A stretch of DNA of 64,000 bases from NCBI GenBank assembly GCA_000004985.1, contig GG738858.1; one strand, 5' to 3'. Below are positions 1,065 to 62,315 of the stretch, in pieces (the stretch's first letter is position 1; each line of letters opens with the position of its first letter). The stretch is from Naegleria gruberi (lineage: Eukaryota). The position numbers and the translations under genes are program-made. Below the pieces are notes generated by a model. It saw only the letters and a list, made by a program, of their open reading frames with translations, was not told the origin of the DNA and searched no databases.

Positions 1065-1137
1065 TATACCCTGTGGGACTCGAACCCACAACCCCCGGCT
1101 CCGTAGGCCGATGCTCTTCCAATTGAGCCAAGGGTAC
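1065..1137 (-). tRNA. tRNA-Arg (anticodon ACG), 73 nt
   Basis: Minus-strand cloverleaf GTACCCT-TG-GCTC-AATTGGAA-GAGC-A-TCGGC-CTACGGA-GCCGG-GGGTT-GTGGG-TTCGAGT-CCCAC-AGGGTAT-A. A GTTCGAGTCC T-arm is present. An A6 run lies on + immediately 3' of it (T6 pol III terminator on the gene strand). Confidence 0.85.
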
Positions 1138-12690: not shown

Positions 12691-15406
12691 ATGAGTAGTA
12701 GTAAGGATAATTCATTACCTGTTCGGGAGGAAGAAGAAATGATGAACATGGACCACGAAGATGATGATGAAGAAGATGAAGAAGAAGAAATGATGGACCC
12801 TAACACTGCAGCCCAACATCACTTGTACCAAATGCAAGCTATGCAACAAGCAGGATATCCAATGCCAACACATGGAGAGATGGACCCTAACACTGCTGCA
12901 GCCTATGGTGTACATCCAGGATATTCGGGAATGGATTACTCAGCAGCTGCAGCCTACGGTGTTGATTATCAAATGCAACAATTATATTATCAACAGAGTA
13001 TGCAACGTTTCCTATCTTCTCTTCCTCCTTCACAACAACAACAATACCTTGCTCAAATGCAACAACAACAGAGAAATCCACAAATGATGAAAGCCTATGC
13101 AACTTCGGCCGCTACTCAACAAAAGTATTCCACAGCATCAACACCTTCCGGTTATGTTGCTTCATCAAGTGTTGATCCATCTGTTGCTCCTCCTTCACCT
13201 GAAAATTCATCACTCACTCCAGAGGATGGTGGAAAGAAGAAGAGAGGTAGAAAGAATAATGCTGATGGTGAAGGTAAAAAAGGTGAAAAGGCTAGACAAC
13301 GTGCCGTCAGACATAACTGGACTCAAGCTCAAGATGATGCTCTCAAGAAGGCCATTAATTCACAACAATACAGCGAAAATGGTCAAAAGATTCGATGGAC
13401 AAAGATTTCACAAGAAGTTTTCGGAAGCAAATTAACACCACANNNNNNNNNNNNNNNNNNNNNNNNNNNNNNNNNNNNNNNNNNNNNNNNNNGCTGCATC
13501 TGCAACAGGTGGAACAACTACAGGAAGTAGTAGTGCAACAACTCCAACACCAACCAAGTCAAAAAAGAAGAAGGAAGCTGCTTCTGAAGATGCTGTAGAA
13601 GGTGAAGATGGCAAGAAAAAGAAGAGTAAGAAAAAGGCAACAACCACTAAGAAGAAGAAAAAGAAAAAGGGTGAAGAAGAAAGTGAACCTGAAGAGGAAG
13701 AAAGTGCAAAGAGGAAGAAACTTGAAGATGATTCAAGTACTAGAGGAAAGAATTATAGTAGAAGAAAGAGTGCAAATCCAAGAAAGGGAAATGTCAGCGT
13801 TATTTTCTCTTCTGAAACAGTTAGTGTTAAACAAGAATCAGATGTATCCATTGACCCTATTTTAGGAGCTGCTTCAAGTATTGAACATACTGAAACAGCA
13901 CTTTTTGGAGAAAAGAAGAGACCTAAGGTTTATCTTTCAAGAAAAGTTCCAAAGAAAAATAGAAATGCTAAATATATTAATGTGGATGATGTCATGAATC
14001 ACATCTATGAAACTAATCCTCAAGAGAAATATGTTTCAATTAGTATTAAGAGTGCTGATATTTTCCGTAATTTCCAACCTATTCCAAACCACCCACTCAA
14101 AGTTGATTGCCTTCTTGGTTTATATTTCGGTACCAATGAAAGAAATATTTGTCTTTCATCTTATAGAACCATGGTAGAAAATGAACAATTTGGTCAATTG
14201 GATGTTAGCTTCCCAACTAATTTGGTTTCTTTCTTCTCAAAGTGTAGACTGAGAAGAAATACTAAGAATTCTCTTTTCCTTTGTGTTGCTCTTAGACAAG
14301 CTGCTTTAGTTCAATCTCTTGATGATGATCCTAGTAGTCAAACCATCCCTCTTTACTGGGATAAGCACAATTATGGAGCAACCGTTTTCTCCTCCCATGC
14401 CTTTGTTGGTTTCTTCTCTGGGCAATATCCTGTCCAATTAAGAACAGCAACTGGAATTTTACTTCAATCTCCACTGACCATCAATGTTAAATTCTCTGAC
14501 TCAACAGATAAGTTGAGTGATTATCCTCTTGAACTTTCTAAGGTTCACTATAGAGAAGTTTCCAATCAATCCAATCTTGCTTCCACCTCTAATACTCAAA
14601 TTAATCCATTAATACTAGGTAGTGAAACTCTGGATCAAAAAGATGATATTCTCCAACTTCACTATATGGTGTATAAGGTCAACTACATAAATACTCATAA
14701 CAGAGGTGTAGAAAGACTTTGGCTACGCTGGGATATGAATTGTCCATTAGAAGATGATTTTGAAGTCAACAATATGATGATTATGGGAACAAACACAGAT
14801 GAAGATACCTTCGCTCAACTCAAGAAACATCTTACAGAAAAACATGGTGATAGATTTGAGATTCAATTTGAAGGTAGAGAAGGTGAAGGAGAAACTGGAT
14901 CATACATTATCAGCATGAATCAATACAAGCACTGGTATCAAAATTATCAATACATGGACAGAAAGAGATTGATGCTTTTGGATCCATCAACAATGGATGT
15001 CAATCAACTTACTCATATTCAAAAACAATTTATGGATGTTTGGAATAGTTATCTATTGGAAAATTTCAAATTATTAATGACAGAAAACGAAGCTCATGAT
15101 GCTTGCCGTAATCTTTACATTAATGAAAGATCCAAGTTGGATGCTGATGAAATGAAAGAAATTCTTGCCCATCAATTCTTAAGATTGACCAGTTTGAATG
15201 TAATATCTATTGAACATTTTATGAATCTTTTGGGAGAAGCTAAGATTCCACTTACCTCAGCCCTAGAACAACAATTACAACATATTCAACAAATGCAACA
15301 AATACAACAACAAACTATCAATCAGAATATGCAATATGCTCAAATGGTAAATCAGTTAAGTGATCAACAACCTGAAGAAGAGGAAGAGGATGAAGAAGAT
15401 GAATAA
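12691..15406 (+). CDS. Myb/SANT-domain protein with Q/M-rich N-terminus and large C-terminal domain; one CDS spanning an assembly gap (N run 13443..13492)
   Basis: The SANT/Myb helix is RHNWTQAQDDALKKAINSQQYSENGQKIRWTKISQEVFG. After the N-gap the same strand stays open with no stop from 13493 into ORF 13982..15406. The apparent frame change is caused by the arbitrary gap length. Confidence 0.55.
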
Positions 15407-27885: not shown

Positions 27886-30668
27886 ATGAGTGAACATCAA
27901 ATCTCCCTCAACAAAGAGACAGACATGGCTGTTGTTCGTTTGGATCAAATAAATGATCATTATTACAAGCTTTTCAATCTTAATGTTCCGAAGGATTTGG
28001 TGAATAACATCAAGAAGGCAATCGTTTCTCAAGATTTAGTTTGGATCATTGATAATGACGGAAAATTGTACGAGTGCAAATTTTCTGGTACCATGTCACC
28101 TTGTTATTGCAAGTTGTTTGATACTAGGGAAATTAATGAGCCAATTTTAGATATTGTTGGAAATGACAATCATTTATTTCTCACCACCAAATCACAAATG
28201 TATGGATTGGGGGTATGTTTTATGATCTATTGATATTAATTATTGATTTAGGGAAATGGATTTGGACAATTAGGATTAGGTAGTACAAAATTTAAAGAGT
28301 CTACTTGTCAACCAATAACCTTTTTCGATAGAATTAATGTAAATAGTAGCAAATATAAGGATAGAGTTGTGAAGATTGCTTGTGGAGAGGCATTTACTTT
28401 ATTCTTGACAAATACTAATAAGGTTTACAGTTGTGGAAGGTAAGAATTGAATATTTAACAACATAAGTCATTTTGAAAAGTAATTATTATGGACAACAGA
28501 CATTCCCTATGGAATCAGCTTTTCTTCCAACTCCTCAAAGAATTACTGAAATTTTCAAAGAAAATCAAAAAGTTGTTAACATTCATTGTGGCCAAACATA
28601 TTCTTTATTTGAGTTGGATGATGGATCATTTCTTTGCTATGGAAGATTGGGTAGTTTTTTGGTGAAAGATCCTAAAATTGTTCCAAAATTGCAAGAATTT
28701 GACAGGTTTGTGCTATTGAATTGATTTATTAACCATTTCAGTATTGAGTCTGTGTATTGTTTATCAGAACGGATTATTTTCATAACTAAATTCATGAAAA
28801 GAATTGATGTGGTGATTAAGACAATCTCTAAAGCAAATCAAGACAATTTTTTTGTTGTCCATTCTGTCAAGGAAGGTTCATTTCAATGTGTGGAGAAAAA
28901 CTCTCAAGAAATTATTTTGAACTGTAACGAGCAACACTTTAAATTATTTCACATTCAATATAAAGCTACCAATTCAGTTAAAGTCTACCAAGGTGATAAA
29001 TTAATCAGAACAATAACTATTAATTCAGATCCAAGTAGATTGAGGGTTTGTTTTACTTCTGGCGAAAACATTCTCATTTATATGAGCAACAGCACTTCAC
29101 AACGTAAAAAAACAATTCATGAATTGATTTTGGGAAAATCTAAAGAGTTCAAACTACCTTCTGATACAATTAATGTTGGATCCTCACCTGTTTATGCATT
29201 CCTTCCATTCATTCAAATTAGAAATCCTCAATTTTATGATTTACTTAGAACAGGTGATTTATTCACTTCGGATAGATCGCCAACCATTATTCAAGATTTG
29301 ATTGATTACTGTTTTTCACAAGACTGTTCATTCTTGAGAAGTTACACATCACCAATGGTTGCTGAGTTAATATACTTATTAGAGAAAATGGGTGTTATCT
29401 ACAATGAATTCACTGCTCCATTAATTTTTCAATCATCAGTACAAATTTCAGCTAGTGAAGATTTTGCTCCAAATGCTGATGCATACGTTGTGAAGCTAAA
29501 ACAAGAGGGAATTACCCCAAAGCTATTTGGTAATTCTCAATTTTTCAATAATCAAACGCCAGCTTATCTACCACCAATTGGTTCAGTTTTGGGTAAACTT
29601 TTTAACTCTGAATCATCAGCAGATACTTCTATAGTCATTGACCAGTTTGGATTGGAAAAAGTCAAATGCCACAGAAGTGTATTGATTGCACAAAGCACCT
29701 TTTTTGAGGCGTTCTATACTGGACATTTTGCTTCAAATGAAATCAATCTCTTCAATGACGAAGATACAGGAGAATTGGATATCAACACTGAGGATATGAG
29801 CGAAGAGGAGAGACAAATGCTGATAGACCCTGAATCTCAAATCAAAACCAGAGCATTGAGAAATATTTTAATGATGTTTTATGAAATTGAGCCAACTGTT
29901 GAGTATGAATTGGTAATTCCAATGCTAGACATGGCTCACAAATTAGATTCTGAGAATTTGGTTATGAAATGCTTGAATATGTTTGAAAATAATTTGGATG
30001 ATGAAAGCTATCAAGTTGTTAATCAGTGGCTGGGAGGTCTTGAACAAAAGACCGATATTCAAAATATGATTTTGAAGACTGCAGATACTTGGGCAAGTCA
30101 AGTATCTCAAAAAATAATACTATTCGAAAATTATGAATTGGAAGAAGAATTTGGTAAATATATTAGAAAACTTAATAATTTCGAAATTTGCCAAGAATTC
30201 ATTCCAAATTTTACAACTCACTATGTTGCAACTAAGCTTGACAAGAAGGATTACAATTTCCTATGTGCAGTAGCTGGTAATTGTAGTATTGTTAAACCTG
30301 AATATTTAAGAAAATGTGGAGAAGAGCAATGTTGGATTGAGGAAGGGCCATATCTTTTAAATAATTGTGCTAATGAATTTGAAAAAAAGGTTCAACTTCT
30401 CTTAAAGGTAAACATGGATAACAAGTTATTGAAGAAATTTGCCTTCTCTTCATATTGTGCACATATATTTTTNNNNNNNNNNNNNNNNNNNNNNNNNNNN
30501 NNNNNNNNNNNNNNNNNNNNNNATGTTGGTGTAAAATGTGAAAAGTATTACATTATTGACTACCACAATTTGGTGGATGTTTTACTTGGCAGTCAAGCAT
30601 CAAAATTCCATTTTGAAAAGAAACGTAAAAGAGAAGATCAAGATCAAAATAGATTTCATTTTTATTAG
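27886..30668 (+). CDS. RCC1-repeat plus BTB/POZ domain protein (RCBTB-like); join(27886..28212,28252..28439,28481..28705,28742..30668); contains N run 30473..30522
   Basis: The RCC1 blades read MYGLG|GNGFGQLGLGS...KIACGEAFTLFLTNTNKVYSCGR and NIHCGQTYSLFELDDGSFLCYGRLG. The BTB core is SIVIDQFGLEKVKCHRSVLIAQSTFFEAFYTGHF...LRNILMMFYEIE. The introns are 39, 41 and 36 nt, and all exons join in frame. Confidence 0.75.
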
Positions 30669-51537: not shown

Positions 51538-53166
51538 CTAATTTGATGTTCTCAATTTAAAATCACTAAAGTCAATACCCATAACACTATATCTAATCTT
51601 CTTAATGGTATCTTGATCTTTTGCTCCGTTAAGTGAGAAGAAACAATTATCCCTCAATCGACCATTCTCCTCAATTACTTCAACCTCTGTATCGCCAATC
51701 ACAACAAATGATCTGTCGAATGCTTTCAATAGCCAAAAATCTTGATTACCTTCAACAGTTTTGAAATATTCGAGTGAGTCGATAAAATTGCAAAATATGT
51801 TGAGTGATTTTCTATTCTTAAAAGTAGAGGAGTTCTTGTTGGTGTAATCATTGGAAATATTAGTCTTACTAATCATATCTCTCAAAATTTCAGAGAAATA
51901 GAATGTTCGGTCAACTTTTCCATTCCTTAAATTATCAAAATACTTGTCAAAGCATTCACTCTTTGGAAGTTGCAAATTCAAAGCAGATAGTACCTCAGAT
52001 GTGAAATGTTGGCAATTGGCTTTGAATTGGTGATATTGAACTGATCCATTATATTTACAAATAATTTCAGTCAACTTTCTAAATGTTTGCTTAACATTCT
52101 CAGCACCACGTATTTCTCCAATGTCAATTGCTGCAATTGTCTTGTCAGATTTGATTTGTTGAATAGAGTCACTCCTTACAATAACAGTTGATGAGTTGAA
52201 CCATTCAATCTTCCATTCACCAATTAAAAGGCCAGTATGAACAATTCCCATATCAGCATTTGAAAAGTAGCTCATTAACTTGGTCATAAAAGGACTATTA
52301 CCTAAATCAGAAATCAACAACTTGACTCGCAGAAATGGTTCACAATTAAGCTTCTTTGAATTTTGCTTAACAATAGAACTCATAAATTCCCTATTCAATA
52401 ATCTATCTTCACACACCAAGTTTTGAGCATCCACTTCCAAATCGCCTGTCATTCTAGCATCTTTGGGAGTTCTATTATTCTTTCTCAAGAAATCATAATA
52501 TTTCTCTAACTTTTTCTTGGCCATTCCAACTCGATCCTTTTCTAAAAGAGTTAATCTGTTTGCACTATATTGGACATCGGTTGTGGTTGGGTACGCAGTA
52601 GCATCAATAATAGCAGGTGTTGGAGAAATACTTGGCTTTGAGAAAAGTGTTTCATTGATTGATTCAAAAGTTTTGTTGGGTTTGTTCACTGGGTTGACAG
52701 AGGTAGAATTCTGGCCAGCTTGACCATCTGATTCCAAAGTATCTTCCGAGACATTTAGTACTAATCTATTCGAATCATCTTCAAACTTGACTCTTCCACT
52801 CTTTTCATCATCAATTTTCTTCTTCATGATAACTTGTTCCAAAAACACAATTGCAGAAATATTATCAATCTTGTACTTGGACATCTTTTGTTGCAACAGT
52901 TCCTTTTCTTGTTGAATTTTGGCATAATTAGTTTCCTTTGCCAACCCTTCGAATAACTTTCCATTAAAATCATTGTTCATTGTTACAGCATTTATGACAG
53001 TATCGTTCTTGAAATTGTAATGAATACATAAACAAAACAAGTCCCTATTGCTACATTCTCGAAGAGGTTTTGCCTCTGCCTCTTCAATCTCATCACTGGG
53101 TGGACTGATTTCTTCAGAGAATCTAATAATACTTGACGTGTTGCCCATTTTTTTAAATTGTATCAT
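51538..53166 (-). CDS. PPPDE/DeSI-type (Peptidase_C97) cysteine peptidase domain protein with ~170-aa conserved C-terminal extension
   Basis: The His motif is VHTGLLIGEWKIEW and the Cys motif is KANCQHFTSEVLSALNLQLP, matching DeSI-1 WHTGIVVH and [21 protein letters not shown]. A second ATG (MGNTSS, 53148) is a possible myristoylated start. Confidence 0.6.
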   Translation of the reverse strand: MIQFKKMGNTSSIIRFSEEISPPSDEIEEAEAKPLRECSNRDLFCLCIHYNFKNDTVINAVTMNNDFNGKLFEGLAKETNYAKIQQEKELLQQKMSKYKIDNISAIVFLEQVIMKKKIDDEKSGRVKFEDDSNRLVLNVSEDTLESDGQAGQNSTSVNPVNKPNKTFESINETLFSKPSISPTPAIIDATAYPTTTDVQYSANRLTLLEKDRVGMAKKKLEKYYDFLRKNNRTPKDARMTGDLEVDAQNLVCEDRLLNREFMSSIVKQNSKKLNCEPFLRVKLLISDLGNSPFMTKLMSYFSNADMGIVHTGLLIGEWKIEWFNSSTVIVRSDSIQQIKSDKTIAAIDIGEIRGAENVKQTFRKLTEIICKYNGSVQYHQFKANCQHFTSEVLSALNLQLPKSECFDKYFDNLRNGKVDRTFYFSEILRDMISKTNISNDYTNKNSSTFKNRKSLNIFCNFIDSLEYFKTVEGNQDFWLLKAFDRSFVVIGDTEVEVIEENGRLRDNCFFSLNGAKDQDTIKKIRYSVMGIDFSDFKLRTSN

Positions 53167-53317: not shown

Positions 53318-53322
53318 AAAAA
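53318..53322 (-). terminator. pol III T5 terminator immediately 3' of the 5S gene
   Basis: AAAAA on +, that is TTTTT on the gene strand, directly after the 5S 3' end. Confidence 0.6.
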
Positions 53323-53440
53323 GACTACAGCACCACAGGTTCCCAAGTTGTCTCCAACCTCAGTACTGATGTGGCTCGACGATGCTTAACTTCTCAAATC
53401 GGACGGGATGAGGTGCATTCATCGTGATATGGCCGTAGCC
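53323..53440 (-). rRNA. 5S ribosomal RNA, 118 nt
   Basis: The minus-strand sequence is GGCTACGGCCATATCACGATGAATGCACCTCATCCCGTCCGATTTGAGAAGTTAAGCATCGTCGAGCCACATCAGTACTGAGGTTGGAGACAACTTGGGAACCTGTGGTGCTGTAGTC. The universal eukaryotic 5S blocks are present, and helix I closes with 9 bp. It is followed by T5. Confidence 0.85.
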
Positions 53441-54187: not shown

Positions 54188-54670
54188 TTACCTCTTTAAT
54201 ACACAATCACTGAAATCAACATCTTTAACACTGTACTTGATATGAGTGATGGAATCTTGATCTCTTCCTCCATTAGTTGTGAAGAATCCATTCTCTTTGA
54301 CTCCTGTAGAATCAAAAGTAAGACAAATTTCATCCTCCCCAACCAAAACAAATGACCTATCAAATGCCTTCAAAAGCCAAAAATCACTTTGACCTGCCTC
54401 AATGTCAAAATATTTGATATGTTCAAGAAAATGACAAAATTCATCCAATGATTTTCTATTCTCGAATCTAATGTTCTTCAAACCAATATAAGGGTTTGTA
54501 ATGTTGCATGTTTTAAATAATGTTGCCAAATTTTCATTCACAAAGAAAGTTCTGTCAGTTTCTCCTCTTTTCAATTTGTCAAAATAAATTTTGAAAGATT
54601 CACTCACTGGAAGTGTCAAATTCAATGCCTCTAATAAATCTGAAACGAAATGTTGGCAATTAGCCCCCAA
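54188..54670 (-). pseudogene. N-terminally truncated paralogue of the PPPDE-domain gene (Cys-motif half plus conserved C-terminal extension only)
   Basis: ANCQHFVSDLLEALNLTLP...FWLLKAFDRSFV...IKYSVKDVDFSD aligns along the last ~160 aa of 51538..53166. An in-frame TAA lies directly upstream, and no plausible intron is found. Confidence 0.5.
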
Positions 54671-54962: not shown

Positions 54963-55067
54963 ATGTTCTTATCGAAGTTTACTGAGATAAAGTAGTGTTT
55001 CTTGAAAACAACAATTGAATAAACTAATAATAGAAAGTATGCTCAAAAAAATTGTCATACTATGGTC
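54963..55067 (+). repeat. split direct repeat A1 (105 bp; contains gag ATG at 55062)
   Basis: Identical copy at 58999..59103. Confidence 0.85.
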
Positions 55068-56189
55068 GCTAAGAAGCCTCAAGATATTGACTCCTCTTCA
55101 TCTGATGAAGATCTCCCAGCAGTTGAAGTAGAATACCCCACAACACCAGTGAAAGCAAGAAAACAACAAGCTGCTAAGAAGCTTAGAAAGTTAAAGGCCA
55201 TGTCACCTGTAGCTAATAGAAATAAGCGCAAACAATCTACTTCAGTTTCATCATCTAACAGTGCCTTAGATGATGGTATTTCAACTGTTGTTTCCAGTTC
55301 GTTGCTAAGCAATTCAACTTTGTTGGATAGTTCTTCAACTGCACCCTCTTCGTCAAACAATTCGTCTTCTTCCAATTCAGGTAGAGATAGTTTTGCCAGT
55401 AGTTCATCTGAACATGATATCATGGCGATCAAAGCCCAAATGCAAGAAATGATTGGAGTTTTGAGAACCGTAACAGGAAATATCTCTGAACTTACTAAGA
55501 AAGTTCAGGAGAGAGAAGAAGAATCAGATGATGATTTTGTTAATCCAGAAGCTATATCTCCAGAAGTTTGGTTACGTCAAACTTATAGAGACCTTAGAAG
55601 TTCTTACAATGTTCCTTCATCTATTGGAGATGATTTATTACTTTCTGCAGTATCCTCCGAGATACTTAAAGACCGTAAACAAGAGGAGACCAAGAGAAGA
55701 ATTCAATATTTGCTCCTTAAATACAAGGATGTGATTTCCAAGTTTGCCCCAGACATTAGATTGGATGAGATTAACAGTATTGGTTATTCTAAACTAGTAG
55801 AGTTAACTCAAATCAAAATTGAATTGTTGGAATATGCATTGAATTCTCCACTTGATTTTACAGTCATGACAGAGATTACAGAACTTTGTAGAATGATTTG
55901 CAAAGTTGAAGCCCTCTTCCTTAAAGAAGGTTTACAAGTTTCCACTTTCGATGTTGGTAGAGAATTCCTTAACAGATACATTTCTACTAATAGTTTCGAA
56001 ACTGCTGCCGAAAGTGAACTTCATAATATTAGAACAACATATCATTACTACAAAGCAACCAAGCAGCAACAAGGTCCAAAGGGAATTACCAAGAAGTATT
56101 CTAAGAAGAAACCGTTTCAAAAGAAAAACAATAAGGGTCAAGGAAACGGTGGTAAATTCCAAGGAAAAGATAAGGATAAGTCAGAATGA
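55062..56189 (+). CDS. retroelement ORF1, gag-like (S-rich N-terminus, basic KKNNKGQGNGGKFQGKDKDK tail)
   Basis: The first ORF after A1 starts on the ATG inside the repeat. It overlaps the pol frame by ~280 nt. Confidence 0.65.
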   Translation: MVAKKPQDIDSSSSDEDLPAVEVEYPTTPVKARKQQAAKKLRKLKAMSPVANRNKRKQSTSVSSSNSALDDGISTVVSSSLLSNSTLLDSSSTAPSSSNNSSSSNSGRDSFASSSSEHDIMAIKAQMQEMIGVLRTVTGNISELTKKVQEREEESDDDFVNPEAISPEVWLRQTYRDLRSSYNVPSSIGDDLLLSAVSSEILKDRKQEETKRRIQYLLLKYKDVISKFAPDIRLDEINSIGYSKLVELTQIKIELLEYALNSPLDFTVMTEITELCRMICKVEALFLKEGLQVSTFDVGREFLNRYISTNSFETAAESELHNIRTTYHYYKATKQQQGPKGITKKYSKKKPFQKKNNKGQGNGGKFQGKDKDKSE

Positions 56190-58062
56190 CTCTTCCACTC
56201 CCTCCTTCCAAGGAGGAAGATTACAACAGTTTTGGAAAAAGTGGCAAATCTTCCCCAAAACTGTTGCAGAATGGATAAGAGAGGGTATTCCAATCCATTC
56301 AGAAAAAGAAAAATGGATCGATATTCCACTAAGATCTCATTTTTCAGAAAAGGAAGATTCATGGTTAAAGAGCGAAATCTCAGATTTACTCAAAACCAAT
56401 ATTATAGAAATTGGAAACAAGGACACTGTCATAAATCCGATTCACGTGGTTCCGAAGAAAGGCAAAGACCAGTTTCGTCTAATCCTAGATTTGAGATCCA
56501 TAAATGCTGGTATAAACAACGACTCATTCAAAATGGATCATATTCACAAAACTCTAAAGTTTCTATCAAAAGACATGTTAGGAATCAAAATAGATTTGAT
56601 GAAAGGTTATCATCACGTTCCAGTGAAGGAAACAGATCGAAAGTTATTGGGATTCAGGTACAACGGCCAGATTTACCATTACAAGTGCCTACCATTCGGT
56701 CTGAACATTGCTCCAAGATTATTCTCCAAGATAATGAAGGTCTTAGTTCAAAGATGGAGAGTAAGAGGAATCTCGGTATTCATTTATTTAGACGATATCT
56801 TAGTGGTAAATCATTCAAAAGATCAGTTGATCTTAGACAGAGATATAGTTCTAAAGGATTTAGAAGAGTTTGGATTCCTCATTCAAAAAGACAAATGTTG
56901 TTTAAATCCAACTCAATTAATAGAATACCTAGGAGTTTTGTTAGACTTTCATCAAGGTTTGGTAAAAATTCCAGAAGACAAAAGGATTACAGCTTTAGAA
57001 TTCATAGAGGAGCTACTCAATGCTTCCCAGAAACGGCTTTATGTTCCATGCAAGAGAGTTGCCAAGTTCCTAGGAAAGTTGGAATTTCTAACAATTGCCA
57101 ACAAGTACCTTTCACCATTCATGTGTCGTCTTCGAAAGAACATGGTTTCAGTAGTATCAGGAAGAGGTTGGCACGCATCAATGCAAATTCACAAAGGCGC
57201 ATTCAAGGATTTATTGATTCTAAGGGAGTTAATTCAAAAGAACGATGGTCATCCGTTCGAATTGGATTGGATTCTCCCAGTGATTGTGAATTCAGATGCA
57301 ACACCTCAAGGTTTCGGCATTCACTCAGGTTCAATCGTTACTGTTGGAAAGTTCAATGGAGAAGAGCACATCAATGTCAAGGAACTAAGAGCCTTACTGC
57401 TTTATTTCAAACAAGCAGACGAATTAAATCTTTATCCAGATTTCACAAATTTCGAATTGAGAGTAGACAACATGGTAGCCGTGGCATATCTAAAGAAGGG
57501 TTATGGATCAAAAGACGATCTCGCAAAGATAGCAAGAGACATCTCAAAGATTCTAATGAGAAGAAATTGGTGGATTTGCAAAGTGATTTACATCCCATCC
57601 AAACAGAATTTCCTAGCAGACAGGTTGAGTCGATTGATGGATTGGGGATCCACCAAGGAACTAATCGAATTAGTCAACCAAGAATTTGGAATACACCATG
57701 TGGACAGATTTGCAACAACGAGTTCGGCAACTACCCTTGTATTCAATTCATGGAAAGAGAACGACGCGTTCAAAAGTCTTTGGGAAAAAGAACTAGTGAG
57801 TTATTGTGTTCCTCCAATAGGATTGATCAGTCAAGCTCTCATTCATCTTATCAAATCCAGATCAATAGCGACATTTGTAATTCCAGAATGGAGCTCCTCG
57901 ATTTGGTGGCCTCTACTCTTAAAGCTATTAAAGAAGAGAAAAAGTATCACAAGAAGGATGCTTTTAATCAAACTATTATCCGAATTATGGATCAAATTCG
58001 AAGGAACGACGTTCATAATTGCTCATCTGGATGGAAACTTATACTTCAAACCAGAGATTTAG
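55906..58062 (+). CDS. retroelement ORF2, reverse transcriptase/RNase H (pol)
   Basis: The RT motifs are LDLRSIN, FGLNIAPRLF and VFIYLDDILVV. The RNase H end reads IPSKQNFLADRLSR. The frame overlaps the end of gag, so the true pol start is probably upstream of the first ATG, via frameshift. Confidence 0.75.
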   Translation: MKPSSLKKVYKFPLSMLVENSLTDTFLLIVSKLLPKVNFIILEQHIITTKQPSSNKVQRELPRSILRRNRFKRKTIRVKETVVNSKEKIRISQNDSSTPSFQGGRLQQFWKKWQIFPKTVAEWIREGIPIHSEKEKWIDIPLRSHFSEKEDSWLKSEISDLLKTNIIEIGNKDTVINPIHVVPKKGKDQFRLILDLRSINAGINNDSFKMDHIHKTLKFLSKDMLGIKIDLMKGYHHVPVKETDRKLLGFRYNGQIYHYKCLPFGLNIAPRLFSKIMKVLVQRWRVRGISVFIYLDDILVVNHSKDQLILDRDIVLKDLEEFGFLIQKDKCCLNPTQLIEYLGVLLDFHQGLVKIPEDKRITALEFIEELLNASQKRLYVPCKRVAKFLGKLEFLTIANKYLSPFMCRLRKNMVSVVSGRGWHASMQIHKGAFKDLLILRELIQKNDGHPFELDWILPVIVNSDATPQGFGIHSGSIVTVGKFNGEEHINVKELRALLLYFKQADELNLYPDFTNFELRVDNMVAVAYLKKGYGSKDDLAKIARDISKILMRRNWWICKVIYIPSKQNFLADRLSRLMDWGSTKELIELVNQEFGIHHVDRFATTSSATTLVFNSWKENDAFKSLWEKELVSYCVPPIGLISQALIHLIKSRSIATFVIPEWSSSIWWPLLLKLLKKRKSITRRMLLIKLLSELWIKFEGTTFIIAHLDGNLYFKPEI

Positions 58063-58967
58063 GGATGTTGGTTTCGATTAAGGAAGAAACCTTCAAACTT
58101 TACACTAGAAACTATAATGGTTTCTTATGGTTTATTACTGCATTCAATATTTCAATGGATGACCCTTATGCTATTGAGTATTATGCAGCTTATCTTACAA
58201 TTCAAGGTCAAACATCTCGTGTTGAAGCCTTGAGACCATCCCTTCAATTTTGGGCCAATATTGAGAGAAGAGTTTTTCCAATTTCATGGTCTTATGATAA
58301 GATTAAAAGAGGAATTACTCTTATTTGGTCCTTGATTGATAGAAAAGCTTTGAAACGTGATCCAATTTTCTATCATCATATTGAAGGTTTCATTCAGAGA
58401 AAAGATCATTATGATCCTTTCATTTTCAAACTCACTAGTGCCATGTTAGTCATTGGTTTCAGACTTTTCGCTAGACCAGGTGAATTAGCTAGACTCAAGT
58501 GGGGTTATGTTACAAAGCTTAGAAATGGTAACATCAAATTAGATCTCAGTGGTCACAAAACAGATTTCTTTCTACTAGAAAAGCCGATTACTATTGACAA
58601 GCATCTTGAAAATCCTTCAGTGTGTCCAGTGAAATTGCTTTTTGATTACATAGACACTGTACAGCATTTCAAAAAAGCAGATTCACCATTGTTTTCATTG
58701 CAGGACAATATTTTCTTCAACACTGAAGATGTTTCTCAACTTATCAAGAATGCTATGTTCTCTGTTGATTCAGAAATCACTGTTTCTGGTCACAGTTTAC
58801 GTATTGGTGCAACTACTGAGAGTATTATCAAGGGAATTCCTACTCAGGATATTATTATGGGGACTAGACATAAGGATGTGAAATCTTTACAACCTTATCA
58901 AAGACAAGAAGCTCTTGCAGCTCGCCACTTGTCTACTACTCTCCTTTCTCGGGACAATATCCATTAG
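56232..58967 (+). CDS. retroelement ORF3: 911-codon frame overlapping pol, C-terminal 300 aa (58065..58967) is the tyrosine recombinase
   Basis: The YR box I/II reads ARPGELARLKWGYV...GHKTD...HSLRIGATTE...GTRHKDVKSLQPYQR. The upstream ~610 codons are a basic R/S/K-rich frame with no stop, although they overlap pol in AT-rich DNA. Confidence 0.6.
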   Translation: MEKVANLPQNCCRMDKRGYSNPFRKRKMDRYSTKISFFRKGRFMVKERNLRFTQNQYYRNWKQGHCHKSDSRGSEERQRPVSSNPRFEIHKCWYKQRLIQNGSYSQNSKVSIKRHVRNQNRFDERLSSRSSEGNRSKVIGIQVQRPDLPLQVPTIRSEHCSKIILQDNEGLSSKMESKRNLGIHLFRRYLSGKSFKRSVDLRQRYSSKGFRRVWIPHSKRQMLFKSNSINRIPRSFVRLSSRFGKNSRRQKDYSFRIHRGATQCFPETALCSMQESCQVPRKVGISNNCQQVPFTIHVSSSKEHGFSSIRKRLARINANSQRRIQGFIDSKGVNSKERWSSVRIGLDSPSDCEFRCNTSRFRHSLRFNRYCWKVQWRRAHQCQGTKSLTALFQTSRRIKSLSRFHKFRIESRQHGSRGISKEGLWIKRRSRKDSKRHLKDSNEKKLVDLQSDLHPIQTEFPSRQVESIDGLGIHQGTNRISQPRIWNTPCGQICNNEFGNYPCIQFMERERRVQKSLGKRTSELLCSSNRIDQSSSHSSYQIQINSDICNSRMELLDLVASTLKAIKEEKKYHKKDAFNQTIIRIMDQIRRNDVHNCSSGWKLILQTRDLGMLVSIKEETFKLYTRNYNGFLWFITAFNISMDDPYAIEYYAAYLTIQGQTSRVEALRPSLQFWANIERRVFPISWSYDKIKRGITLIWSLIDRKALKRDPIFYHHIEGFIQRKDHYDPFIFKLTSAMLVIGFRLFARPGELARLKWGYVTKLRNGNIKLDLSGHKTDFFLLEKPITIDKHLENPSVCPVKLLFDYIDTVQHFKKADSPLFSLQDNIFFNTEDVSQLIKNAMFSVDSEITVSGHSLRIGATTESIIKGIPTQDIIMGTRHKDVKSLQPYQRQEALAARHLSTTLLSRDNIH

Positions 58968-59000
58968 TTTATTTATTGTTGGTTTTCTTTTAAGAAACAT
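58957..59000 (+). repeat. split direct repeat B1 (44 bp)
   Basis: Identical copy at 59778..59821. Confidence 0.8.
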
Positions 59001-59103
59001 GTTCTTATCGAAGTTTACTGAGATAAAGTAGTGTTTCTTGAAAACAACAATTGAATAAACTAATAATAGAAAGTATGCTCAAAAAAATTGTCATACTATG
59101 GTC
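58999..59103 (+). repeat. split direct repeat A2
   Basis: Identical to A1. Confidence 0.85.
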
Positions 59104-59777
59104 CCACCCTTGCCCACCCTCTATTATTATTAGTTTATTCAAATCAAAGGTTCTAACCTTTGTCCTTAATACTTTGGAATGTGATTTTTTAACCAATCCT
59201 CAAATATTTTCTCAATTGATTGAAAGATTTCACTCTATTTGTATTATTGAAAGATGATTGTTATCATCTTTTTATCTTTGTATTATTATTTGATATTTGA
59301 CATCATTTATTGATGTTTTTTATCATGATTGGTGATCTAAAACCAATTGTTGGTGATCTAAAACCGACAGATCAACTTTATGTTGATTAGAAGGTATCTG
59401 ATACCTTTCCCTTACTATTAGTAAGGCAATATGTACTGAACATACCTCTTTTCTCATTCTCGTTTTGATTCGTAAGTGTCAAGACGGTTGAGTAGGTTTT
59501 TTAATTCTTAACTTTTTAGTTTTTACCGATTTTTTTTTTTTTTCCTACAAGAGTAGGTTTTTTTATATGGGAGTTGTTTCTCCAAAAAACAACTTGGTTT
59601 ATTGTCAGATTGCTTTAATTTAGTTTAGTTTTTGCTTTTTGTTAAGAAATCATAGTATGATTGTATTGATTAGTTTATTTAATTTCTGGACCTGCTGAAT
59701 AAAGCTTAATGCCTAAAAACAGCAGTAACCAGGCTACAAACTACCTAAGAATAGGTAGAAGTTGTAGTGTGAGCTTT

Positions 59778-59821
59778 ATATCCATTAGTTTATTTATTGT
59801 TGGTTTTCTTTTAAGAAACAT
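59778..59821 (+). repeat. split direct repeat B2
   Basis: Identical to B1. Confidence 0.8.
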
Positions 59822-59878: not shown

Positions 59879-61813
59879 ATGCAAAGACCAAACATTTCAC
59901 AGGATTTAGAGTCTCACATTTCCAGCAGCACATCAACAGCTTCATTTTCCAACTTACCTTACGTTAATTCAGAGAAACATCTAATCAAGTCAAATGTCAA
60001 TGGCAAGTCAAGATGTAATTTACCTACAATTCTCTTACTATTATTCATCCTCACAAGTTTGGTGATGATTTTTTATTTGACGTCCAAGCGAGGAGTAAGA
60101 GGAGAAGCCAGAGTATTCCCTGTCACTTATCTAGATGTCGATTTCACAAATTCTGAAAATTTAAAACTCAACCGAGTGAGAGGTCTTTGTAAAATATTCT
60201 TATCAACCTATTATTTGTTTAATTATAATGAAAAATCACCTAATTATGTTCCACCAACAGTTATTGGTGCTGACGGTGCTCCTGAAGCAAAATATAGTAA
60301 GTTTGATGGTTGGCATTTAATTAGTGAAAATTGACATGTGAAATGTAAAGCTCATTGGAAGAAGATTGAGAGGACTTTTCAATTTTTATCGGGTGGAGAG
60401 TCTAACTATATTGATGATCATGATATTATTGTTTTCAGTGATGCAACAGATGTTTTATTCATCAATAATATTGAAAATGTCAAGAAAGTATACGAAACTT
60501 ACTATATCAAGGAAATTGCTAATATTGATTTGAAAGATAGTGAGAGAGATTGGCCTATTGTGTTTATTGCTGAAAAGAATAAGTGGCCACCAAATGATTT
60601 CATTCAAAATATGTTTACAGTAAGTGTTTCTAATAGAATTTACTAATTTTCTCGATTCATACTCTAGGAAGATTGTCATAATTATGTGGGGGTGGGTGGG
60701 TCGTGAAAAAAGGATGTCCATAATTACGTGGTCCAGAGTGGGTCAGAAAGTAGAGCAGAGCAAAAAACAAAAATTGGCAAAAGTAGAGCCGAAGGTTTAT
60801 TAGCCAAGAGTGAGACAGTGTTCAAAGTATCAATTATCACTTGTTCTGCTAGCAACAAGTACTTCTGGGTTCTTGATTGTTTGTGTACCAACAACTTTGG
60901 GCAGGCATTCATCTAGATTGTTATGGTTGAATGTGCTATGGCTGATGTGGAAGGAAGCAAAGGGAGAACTCTCCTCCTGGTACTGATGAAGGTTGGTAGT
61001 TAGCAGGGTGATGAAATCATGAGTAATTGTTGTTTGTTGTTTTTTTTTGTTGAATATAACGGTCAGAACATTCAACTTTCAGCGGTAACATGTTTGGTAG
61101 TGTGAAAAAACTCACATGCAGTGGCCAGGATTTGTTGGGACGATCTTACAGTGAGGTTGGGTGGGTCAAAAAGTGAGGGTCGTAATGACAATCTTCCCTA
61201 TTAGAAAACACCTGAGGAGGAGAATATGGTCGAAAAATACTACTATGACATTAATGGCTATAGAGTTAAGAGAAATTGTGCATCAGCAAATGATAGAATT
61301 TATTTAAATAGTGGACTTTACGTTGGAAGAAAACGTGATATTAGAAAGGCACTTTCCATTGGATTGAATGTGAAAAGAGGTGAACCAAAGGAAAGAATTG
61401 AAGATCAAGCGCTATTCCAATACATTTATGCCACCAATAAGTATCCAATTCTTATGGATTGTGAAAAGAAAATGTTTTACAGTCCATTCTCAGCTTGTGA
61501 TACAATTGTTAGTGAGGAAGAGAAGAAGTGGTCGTGTTCTATTCGTGATGGTCAGGAGGAGACACCAGATAGTGTTGTCTACGTTCATTCAAATGGTGGA
61601 TTTTGTTATTCACTTTGTAATTGTTTCACTTCAATGAAACAAAAAGGAATGTTCAAGAATTTAATGGAACAGTATCAGGACAAGTTGAGTTTCAAGTCGT
61701 ATGATATTAATTCTAGAAAAGTGAGAAGTGTTTTGATGAAATATGCTTGTGGACACTTTGTTGATGAAGATTTCGCTTTGGATTCATGTAATACTCAACC
61801 TCCTCCTGCTTAG
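59879..61813 (+). CDS. type-II membrane GT-A glycosyltransferase, PLOD/LH3-GT-like; join(59879..60619,61205..61813) with an in-frame TGA at 60335..60337
   Basis: The TM anchor is LPTILLLLFILTSLVMIFYL. KAHWKKIERTF..HDIIVFSDATDVLF..PIVFIAEKNKWP..RIYLNSGLYVG..VVYVHSNGG is colinear with the PLOD3 GT domain QKVRWLKKEM..DMIIMFVDSYDVIL..RLLFSAESFCWP..RFLNSGGFIGF..VVHGNG. The 585-nt intron 60620..61204 contains the MITE-like element. Confidence 0.65.
60667..61197. mobile_element. 531-bp non-autonomous TIR element (MITE-like) with 13-bp terminal inverted repeats and 3-bp CTA target-site duplication
   Basis: The left end is GGAAGATTGTCAT (60667..60679). The right end is ATGACAATCTTCC (61185..61197). 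CTA flanks both sides (60664..60666 and 61198..61200). Internally GGGTGGGTC/AAAAAG motifs repeat, and there is no coding capacity. Confidence 0.6.
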
Positions 61814-61839
61814 ATAAAAAGATTTGTTTGATAAAAGGA

Positions 61840-61928
61840 AGGGTGGTACGTGGATCGAACACGTGACCATCGGATGTCTCCTGCAATTAACTTTGCAATC
61901 CGGTGCTCTACCGCTGAGCTAACCGCCC
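61840..61928 (-). tRNA. tRNA-Cys (anticodon GCA) with 17-nt intron after position 37
   Basis: The minus-strand sequence is GGGCGGT-TA-GCTC-AGCGGTA-GAGC-A-CCGGA-TTGCAA[AGTTAATTGCAGGAGAC]A-TCCGA-TGGTC-ACGTG-TTCGATC-CACGT-ACCACCC-T. The intron contains AATTGCA complementary to the anticodon loop. There are C4-A69 and C27-A43 mismatches. Confidence 0.7.
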
Positions 61929-62242
61929 TTGTGTTGCAGTCATAAAATATTAACTTATTGCTGTTAGCATTTATTAAGGTTAAATTGTATTGATGAACAA
62001 TTTATTGTGCTCCCTATGATTTTTCTTCTTGTTAACCATCATTCTCACTATTTTCCCAATCATATTGAGCTAGTAATTCTGTAATCTTTTCGTGTAATTA
62101 AAAAATTAGGAAAAGCTATCATCACACCATGCCATGGATGGCTGGCCTGTTTATCAGGAGGAATCAGTAATTCCTTTATTCACAGAGGCACCACTCTGGT
62201 CCAACTCTGCTGATAGTAATAAAGAATAAGAAAAAAGGTTAG

Positions 62243-62315
62243 CTCCCCCTGGTGGGCTCGAACCACCGACCTGCAGATTAACAGTCTGACGCTCTACCGA
62301 CTGAGCTAAGGGGGA
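62243..62315 (-). tRNA. tRNA-Asn (anticodon GTT), 73 nt
   Basis: The minus-strand sequence is TCCCCCT-TA-GCTC-AGTCGGTA-GAGC-G-TCAGA-CTGTTAA-TCTGC-AGGTC-GGTGG-TTCGAGC-CCACC-AGGGGGA-G. A T6 run lies directly downstream on the gene strand. Confidence 0.85.

Follow-up and report, generated by a model that had tools for sequence, protein, structure and literature searches.

A probable non-autonomous DNA transposon, present in one Naegleria gruberi-like genome and absent from another, in the second intron of a glycosyltransferase-like gene

The repeats of Naegleria gruberi, a model free-living amoeba, have barely been described and make up about 5% of its genome (PMC9928731). A stretch of 64,000 nucleotides of this genome (contig GG738858.1 of assembly GCA_000004985.1; the whole stretch is called the window here, and positions refer to it) carries a glycosyltransferase-like gene with two introns, of which the second is 585 nt long. 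The intron lengths that are directly comparable are 54 nt (intron 1 of the same gene), 51 nt (the second intron in another allele, described below), 111 nt (N. fowleri) and 58 nt (N. lovaniensis). The question raised by this locus is what fills the long intron, and how it came to be there. A first-pass annotation of the window had described a 531-bp block within it, bounded by perfect 13-bp inverted repeats and flanked on both sides by CTA, and had read this as a non-coding element inserted into a pre-existing short intron.

The block is very probably a non-autonomous class II (cut-and-paste) DNA transposon of N. gruberi with terminal inverted repeats (TIRs), resembling a miniature transposable element with inverted repeats (MITE) in size and structure. 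Two contigs assembled from a metagenome run, L003 and L011, carry the same intron without the block and with a single CTA, matching the core of the earlier reading, and the presence or absence of the element is polymorphic among N. gruberi-like genomes. The features of the filled site are as follows:

60664-60666, no strand: left target-site duplication CTA, read from the sequence; a single CTA in L003 and L011
60667-61197, no strand: probable non-autonomous TIR element, 531 bp; missing with exact boundaries from L003 and L011
60667-60679, plus strand: left TIR, GGAAGATTGTCAT; 13 nt, 100% complementary to the right copy
61185-61197, minus strand: right TIR, ATGACAATCTTCC on the plus strand; exact reverse complement of the left copy
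61198-61200, no strand: right target-site duplication CTA, read from the sequence; a single CTA in L003 and L011

The coordinates and sequences given earlier for the block, its TIRs, the CTA flanks and the bounds of the 585-nt intron proved correct, base for base, with the two repeats matching at 13 of 13 positions and a 3-bp duplication. The bases outside and inside the CTA copies differ between the two sides, which fixes the length of the direct repeat at exactly 3 bp. The block had also been called G-rich, and it holds 150 G against 71 C, or about twice as many, with a G+C content of 42% compared to 33% in the window. Its internal repetition is modest: the heptamer GTGGGTC does occur three times, but 22% of shuffled versions hold some 7-mer three times, and the repeat is not significant after multiple testing. 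TIR-like motifs in the subterminal parts of the block (candidate transposase-binding repeats) were found at chance level only. The longest open reading frame (ORF) inside the block is 81 aa, and when compared with 1.84 billion representatives it matched only tandem-repeat junk. Six-frame pieces of the block gave no protein match at E<=10 in a word-indexed search of limited sensitivity; the same search with the 431-aa host protein returned only three proteins and missed three from N. gruberi, P0004, P0005 and P0007, although these are in the collection searched and match the query, in whole or in part, at 88-100% identity. No Rfam family was found in the block above chance (best score 12.5 bits, E=0.86), and no tRNA was detected by ARAGORN or Rfam. 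An RNA gene, a tRNA-derived short interspersed element and a group I intron were rejected as identities of the block, there being no Rfam or ARAGORN signal.

The empty site was found by probing public assemblies with the exact 195-aa (exon 3) and 102-aa (exon 2) ORFs of the gene. Two contigs were returned, both from metagenome run ERR1078381 (PRJEB11402): L003 in the ENA assembly (1237 nt) and L011 in the Logan assembly (1047 nt). L003 spans 60167-61937; with the block and one CTA, 534 bp together, taken out of the window, its alignment has no gap and shows eight substitutions in 1237 nt. L011 likewise aligns gap-free. SNPs that would tell the alleles apart are at 60409 and 61231. At the site it reads ...TTTACA GTAAGTGTTTCTAATAGAATTTACTAATTTTCTCGATTCATACTCTATTAG AAAACACC..., a 51-nt intron with one CTA, and L011 is the same as L003 at this position. 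The earlier prediction, that removal of the block and one CTA would leave a 51-nt intron ending in TATTAG, is borne out exactly by the sequence present in both contigs. They retain both introns of the gene and extend into the downstream tRNA gene, indicating that they derive from genomic DNA rather than spliced RNA. All five coding differences between the window and the empty allele are synonymous and both ORFs translate identically, so that the gene was under constraint in both lineages. The indel ends exactly at a perfect 13-bp inverted repeat that is flanked by a 3-bp duplication, as is characteristic of a TIR transposon, and the filled and empty sites together give direct evidence of recent DNA-transposon mobility in N. 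gruberi.

The first-pass annotation had proposed a comparison with the intron in related species, and this supports the same direction of change. The N. fowleri orthologue has an intron of 111 nt at the same codon boundary (positions 3917-4027 of contig L001), and the N. lovaniensis homologue has one of 58 nt at the equivalent place (positions 3694-3751 of contig L002). Neither locus shows any similarity to the block. Judged from these comparisons, intron 2 is old and short, with the block added in the lineage of the N. gruberi reference. The site is filled in the reference scaffold and empty in another N. gruberi-like genome, so the insertion is evolutionarily recent.

Several observations weigh against this explanation of the block. 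The TIRs and the duplication by themselves are not convincingly beyond chance: in second-order Markov simulations with the composition of the window (n=100), an inverted repeat of at least 13 bp with a flanking repeat of at least 3 bp is expected 0.17 times per window and was present in 15 of the 100 simulations, while perfect inverted repeats of at least 12 bp within 1.5 kb number 22 in the window against 18.8 in simulated sequence. L003 and L011 are two assemblies of the reads of one run, not two samples. Other copies are lacking in the 64-kb window, where a blastn search with the block matched only itself, and a search of the window for the TIR with up to two mismatches found six sites against 3.75 expected, which is chance level. 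When JGI metagenomes were scanned with a degenerate 23-mer for either terminus, seven matches came up, roughly as many as chance would give and none of them extending beyond the pattern, and there were no matches in the IMG/VR viral sequences. Exact look-ups of the ORFs of the block, and of ORFs spanning its junctions, found no record; this and the other protein and ORF negatives for the block are weak ones, as the N. gruberi genome is not ORF-indexed. No transposase was found among the nine window ORFs scanned (38371-58967), and no autonomous partner is known. The target triplet is a further difficulty. Published target consensuses of the PIF/Harbinger (PHIS) group are TWA, CWG, ANT and C|TNA|G, the last three being those of Nuwa and Pangu (PMC4482050), and CTA (context ACT CTA TTAG) fits none of them, which is a weak test with a single insertion. 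The reference gene models that bear on splicing, discussed below, may be purely ab initio.

Set beside these points is the probability, about 4^-13, that a perfect 13-bp inverted repeat would fall by chance at the exact ends of an arbitrary indel. The case for a real element comes from the existence of an independent empty-site allele. Structure and mobility warrant the name MITE; abundance does not yet. Searches of the literature for Naegleria MITEs, for accession PRJEB11402 and for three locus tags found nothing.

Other explanations of the filled and empty sites differ in how they read the duplication and the direction of change. The target may have been duplicated as TA, as for Tc1/mariner/pogo and Stowaway-like elements, in which case the shared C is a coincidence and the element runs from 60667 to 61198 with termini GGAAG.../...CTTCCC. 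The empty site, ACTCTATTAG, fits a TA duplication with one extra element base equally well, and that base would match by chance one time in four. CTA is outside the PHIS consensuses, and among transposon targets in AT-rich genomes TA is much the most frequent. Like Stowaway-like MITEs (derived from Tc1/mariner), the block is a short TIR element in an intron, with TA within its target. However, the TA reading makes the termini unequal, with the inverted repeats offset by one base, whereas the 3-bp parse is cleaner and gives symmetric 13-bp TIRs that start from the first base on both sides; the usual ends of Tc1/mariner elements also seem unlike those of the block. On balance, a TA duplication is unlikely. 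It is much less likely still that the long intron is the older form and that the lineage of the metagenome strain lost 534 bp, either through a deletion between the CTA microhomologies or when an old element was excised precisely, to give the short allele. A presence/absence pair alone gives no direction, and 3-bp microhomology is typical of end-joining deletions, but a deletion would need to have started and stopped, by coincidence, where a perfect 13-bp inverted repeat has its outer ends, both outgroups have short introns (111 and 58 nt) that do not resemble the block, and precise excision would still make the block a transposon.

Two further possibilities concern what the block is. Its length of 531 bp is within the range of long terminal repeats (LTRs), a young retroelement lies 0.9 kb upstream, and LTR elements make duplications of 3-6 bp (PMC10045372), so that a solo LTR or other retroelement remnant, perhaps related to this tyrosine-recombinase retroelement, might be considered. 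The block nevertheless has termini GG...CC and not TG...CA, its duplication is 3 bp rather than 4-6 bp, and neither the upstream element nor any other part of the window resembles it. Elements of the DIRS group are not known to make target duplications. A retroelement origin is highly improbable. The intronic location and the strong excess of G over C on the sense strand could also be those of a functional insert, for instance a gene for a non-coding RNA or an intron that is nested or self-splicing. This is extremely unlikely, given that the block has no Rfam match above chance and no tRNA, that its boundaries are not GT...AG, and that it is missing from a close relative in which the gene is intact and the five coding differences are all synonymous.

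Taking the block as a TIR transposon, its likely affiliation can be narrowed by its duplication and termini. Duplications of 3 bp are made by PIF/Harbinger elements and their PHIS relatives, CACTA, Zator and AcademX (PMC4482050, PMC2213677, PMC10045372). CACTA/EnSpm elements, which have 5'-CACTA/CACTG termini and a 3-bp duplication, were ruled out by the GGAAG...CTTCC termini of the block. A GG terminus fits PIF/Harbinger-type elements, and the 3-bp duplication together with the 5'-GG terminus would make the PIF/Harbinger (PHIS) group, Zator or AcademX the candidates. Block and Tourist-like MITEs, or non-autonomous PIF/Harbinger elements such as rice mPing, are all short and non-coding, with short TIRs starting in GG and a 3-bp target duplication. 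Insertion in genic, AT-rich non-coding DNA is shared with Tourist-like and PHIS elements, and the empty allele has a single target copy, as before insertion or after precise excision. Precise excision is typical of the PIF/Harbinger (PHIS) group. The block differs in its triplet, CTA, and in its length, 531 bp being at the long end for a MITE. We know of no transposase or Myb-like partner with termini matching those of the block. The 3-bp duplication of PHIS elements is documented (PMC4482050, PMC2213677). Zator and AcademX are DDD/E transposons with duplications of 3 bp or 3-4 bp (PMC10045372); they are superfamilies defined by their transposases, and only the duplication length can be compared with the block.

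Introner elements, described in Micromonas, Aureococcus and others, are TIR transposons that give rise to new spliceosomal introns. The block is similar in being a non-autonomous TIR element with a short duplication, lying within a gene and forming a splice-site dinucleotide at one junction; it differs in that its ends are not the ends of the intron and that neither terminus carries a 5' splice site. An introner identity was ruled out, as both L003 (51 nt) and, at the same codon boundary, N. fowleri have the intron without the block.

The host gene is organised as follows:

59879-60296, plus strand: exon 1, start codon and N-terminal membrane anchor; follows the reading frame and equals the N-termini of N. 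gruberi models P0007 and P0005
60297-60350, plus strand: intron 1, 54 nt, phase 1, GTAAGT...AAAG; P0007 reads ...EAKY|THWKK across it, and it is kept in genomic contig L003
60351-60619, plus strand: exon 2, with the FSDATDV motif; aligns to N. fowleri P0001 and is followed by GTAAGT
60620-61204, plus strand: intron 2, phase 0; 585 nt in the filled allele and 51 nt in the empty allele
61205-61813, plus strand: exon 3, YLNSG...GRKRD region with a weak GT_PLOD match; stop codon 61811-61813

The first-pass annotation had called the long intron the only one of the gene; there are in fact two, the other being the 54-nt phase-1 intron at 60297-60350. The spliced product of the three exons is 431 aa, and is 47% identical to N. 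fowleri P0001 and 31% identical to N. lovaniensis P0002. The intron 2 junction, ...QNMFT|KTPEEENMV..., aligns without gaps to ...QNMFA|KTEKEEQMV... of N. fowleri and also matches N. gruberi model P0005. Portions of the product are identical to N. gruberi predicted proteins, and the full spliced protein has no entry in the protein collection searched. The protein matches Pfam GT_PLOD over residues 258-362 with 25.4 bits against a cut-off of 27 (E=9.9e-6). Two of three homologues had the match at E<=0.01; by another count, one homologue shares it. The label PLOD-like, given by a match below the cut-off, is plausible but not firm. Neither the protein nor its profile matched a PDB homologue by sequence.

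The insertion has probable consequences for splicing, which involve two features of the filled intron:

60641-60647, plus strand: branch-point-like TACTAAT of the original intron, read from the sequence, with the branch A at about 60646; putative role
60666-60706, plus strand: new AG acceptor and readthrough; AG 60666-60667, 12 codons EDCHNYVGVGGS, TGA 60704-60706; from the translation and model P0007

In the filled intron, CTAAT-type motifs occur at 60630 and 60643 (the latter inside TACTAAT) and nowhere else, and the element sits between these branch-like motifs and the original acceptor. The distance from the branch A to the true acceptor is 558 nt in the filled allele against 24 nt in the empty one, and no yTrAy motif is present in the last 60 nt of the filled intron. 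Where the left CTA meets the element, its A and the initial G of the element make a new AG, which lies 21 nt from the branch A. This AG is used by reference model NAEGRDRAFT_65410 (P0007, 241 aa), which ends ...NMFTEDCHNYVGVGGS, i.e., ...NMFT|EDCHNYVGVGGS*, while NAEGRDRAFT_65411 (P0004, 195 aa) starts at the internal ATG 61226. Both models are on a 782-kb scaffold. The insertion explains this annotation error, by which a single 431-aa gene was entered under two names, NAEGRDRAFT_65410, with 12 transposon-encoded residues at its end, and NAEGRDRAFT_65411. In the first-pass annotation, use of an acceptor near 60666 had been seen as an alternative that would tell against an insertion. That opposition falls away: the AG is built by the insertion, making the acceptor at 60666 a consequence of it.

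A third model, NAEGRDRAFT_76241 (P0005, XP_002668835), on a 36-kb scaffold (36,111 bp), is spliced QNMFT|KTPEE. Leaving aside 46 aa of exon 2 that the model skips, it is near-identical to the locus, with three substitutions and a proline fewer, and its sequence fits an insertion-free haplotig. XP_002668313 (P0003), on a 7.3-kb scaffold, fuses the first ORF of the upstream retroelement (window 55062-55598) with part of exon 1. The small scaffolds carrying these two models look like redundant haplotigs of the locus.

The events leading to the filled allele may be pictured as follows. Transposase supplied in trans by an autonomous relative would have bound the 13-bp TIRs, and a 3-nt staggered cut would have been made at CTA in the old second intron, of about 51 nt, of a Golgi-type (PLOD-like) glycosyltransferase gene, the CTA being duplicated on gap repair. 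Much of the transcript of the filled allele would then be spliced to the new AG, and 12 codons of the element read before a stop. The product would be truncated and without the conserved C-terminal half of the enzyme, as also encoded by the reference gene model. From these motifs and models, the filled allele is likely a natural mis-splicing allele, and if so, it represents a natural loss-of-function allele. The insertion could also be used as a presence/absence marker for strain typing. The element is ordinary in kind, its workings are those already known for such elements, and its value is local.

A more far-reaching possibility, and a quite improbable one, is that the element belongs to a still-active Naegleria family with 'splice-aware' ends. 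Read outward, each terminus ends in the pyrimidine-rich ...ATGACAATCTTCC, and a CTA/TAG target would place TAG at the junction in either orientation. Only one junction AG and one gene model back this suggestion. If correct, insertions would be tolerated inside introns or would hijack splicing, the family could in principle seed new introns, and the reference strain would carry a natural, possibly heterozygous, glycosyltransferase knock-out allele.

A perfect 10-nt inverted repeat, TTTCTAATAG / CTATTAGAAA, lies at 60627-60636 and 61198-61207. Since the empty allele has it too, the repeat does not belong to the element. Through it the 5' part of intron 2 could pair with the acceptor region, or it may be due to chance.

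Directly upstream of the gene is a young tyrosine-recombinase retrotransposon (DIRS-group, PAT/Ngaro-like) at 54963-59821, plus strand. It has three overlapping long ORFs, with a Pfam match to RVT_1 (5e-26) and weak matches to a Dam-like methyltransferase and to Phage_integrase. Its split direct repeats are 100% identical: repeat A at 54963-55067 and 58999-59103, and repeat B at 58957-59000 and 59778-59821. The second copy of repeat B ends 57 nt before the ATG of the gene, which, with the intronic block, brings the transposable-element insertions in this allele to two. The DIRS-like sequences of N. gruberi have been listed as uncertain (PMC3266345).

Downstream of the gene is a tRNA gene at 61840-61928, minus strand, which scores 50 bits with Rfam, is missed by ARAGORN, and by eye is an intron-containing tRNA-Cys(GCA). 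One of the substitutions between the window and L003, at 61880, is inside its presumed intron. Other RNA genes among the protein-coding genes of the window are a dispersed 5S rRNA (53322-53440, minus strand), a tRNA-Arg(ACG) (1065-1137, minus strand) and a tRNA-Asn(GTT) (62242-62315, minus strand). Two segments of 460 nt each, 51561-52020 and 54205-54664, are 65% identical in the same orientation and may be a diverged duplicate; the first is within an ORF that has a weak match to a PPPDE peptidase. Two runs of exactly 50 N, at 13443-13492 and 30473-30522, are scaffold gaps.

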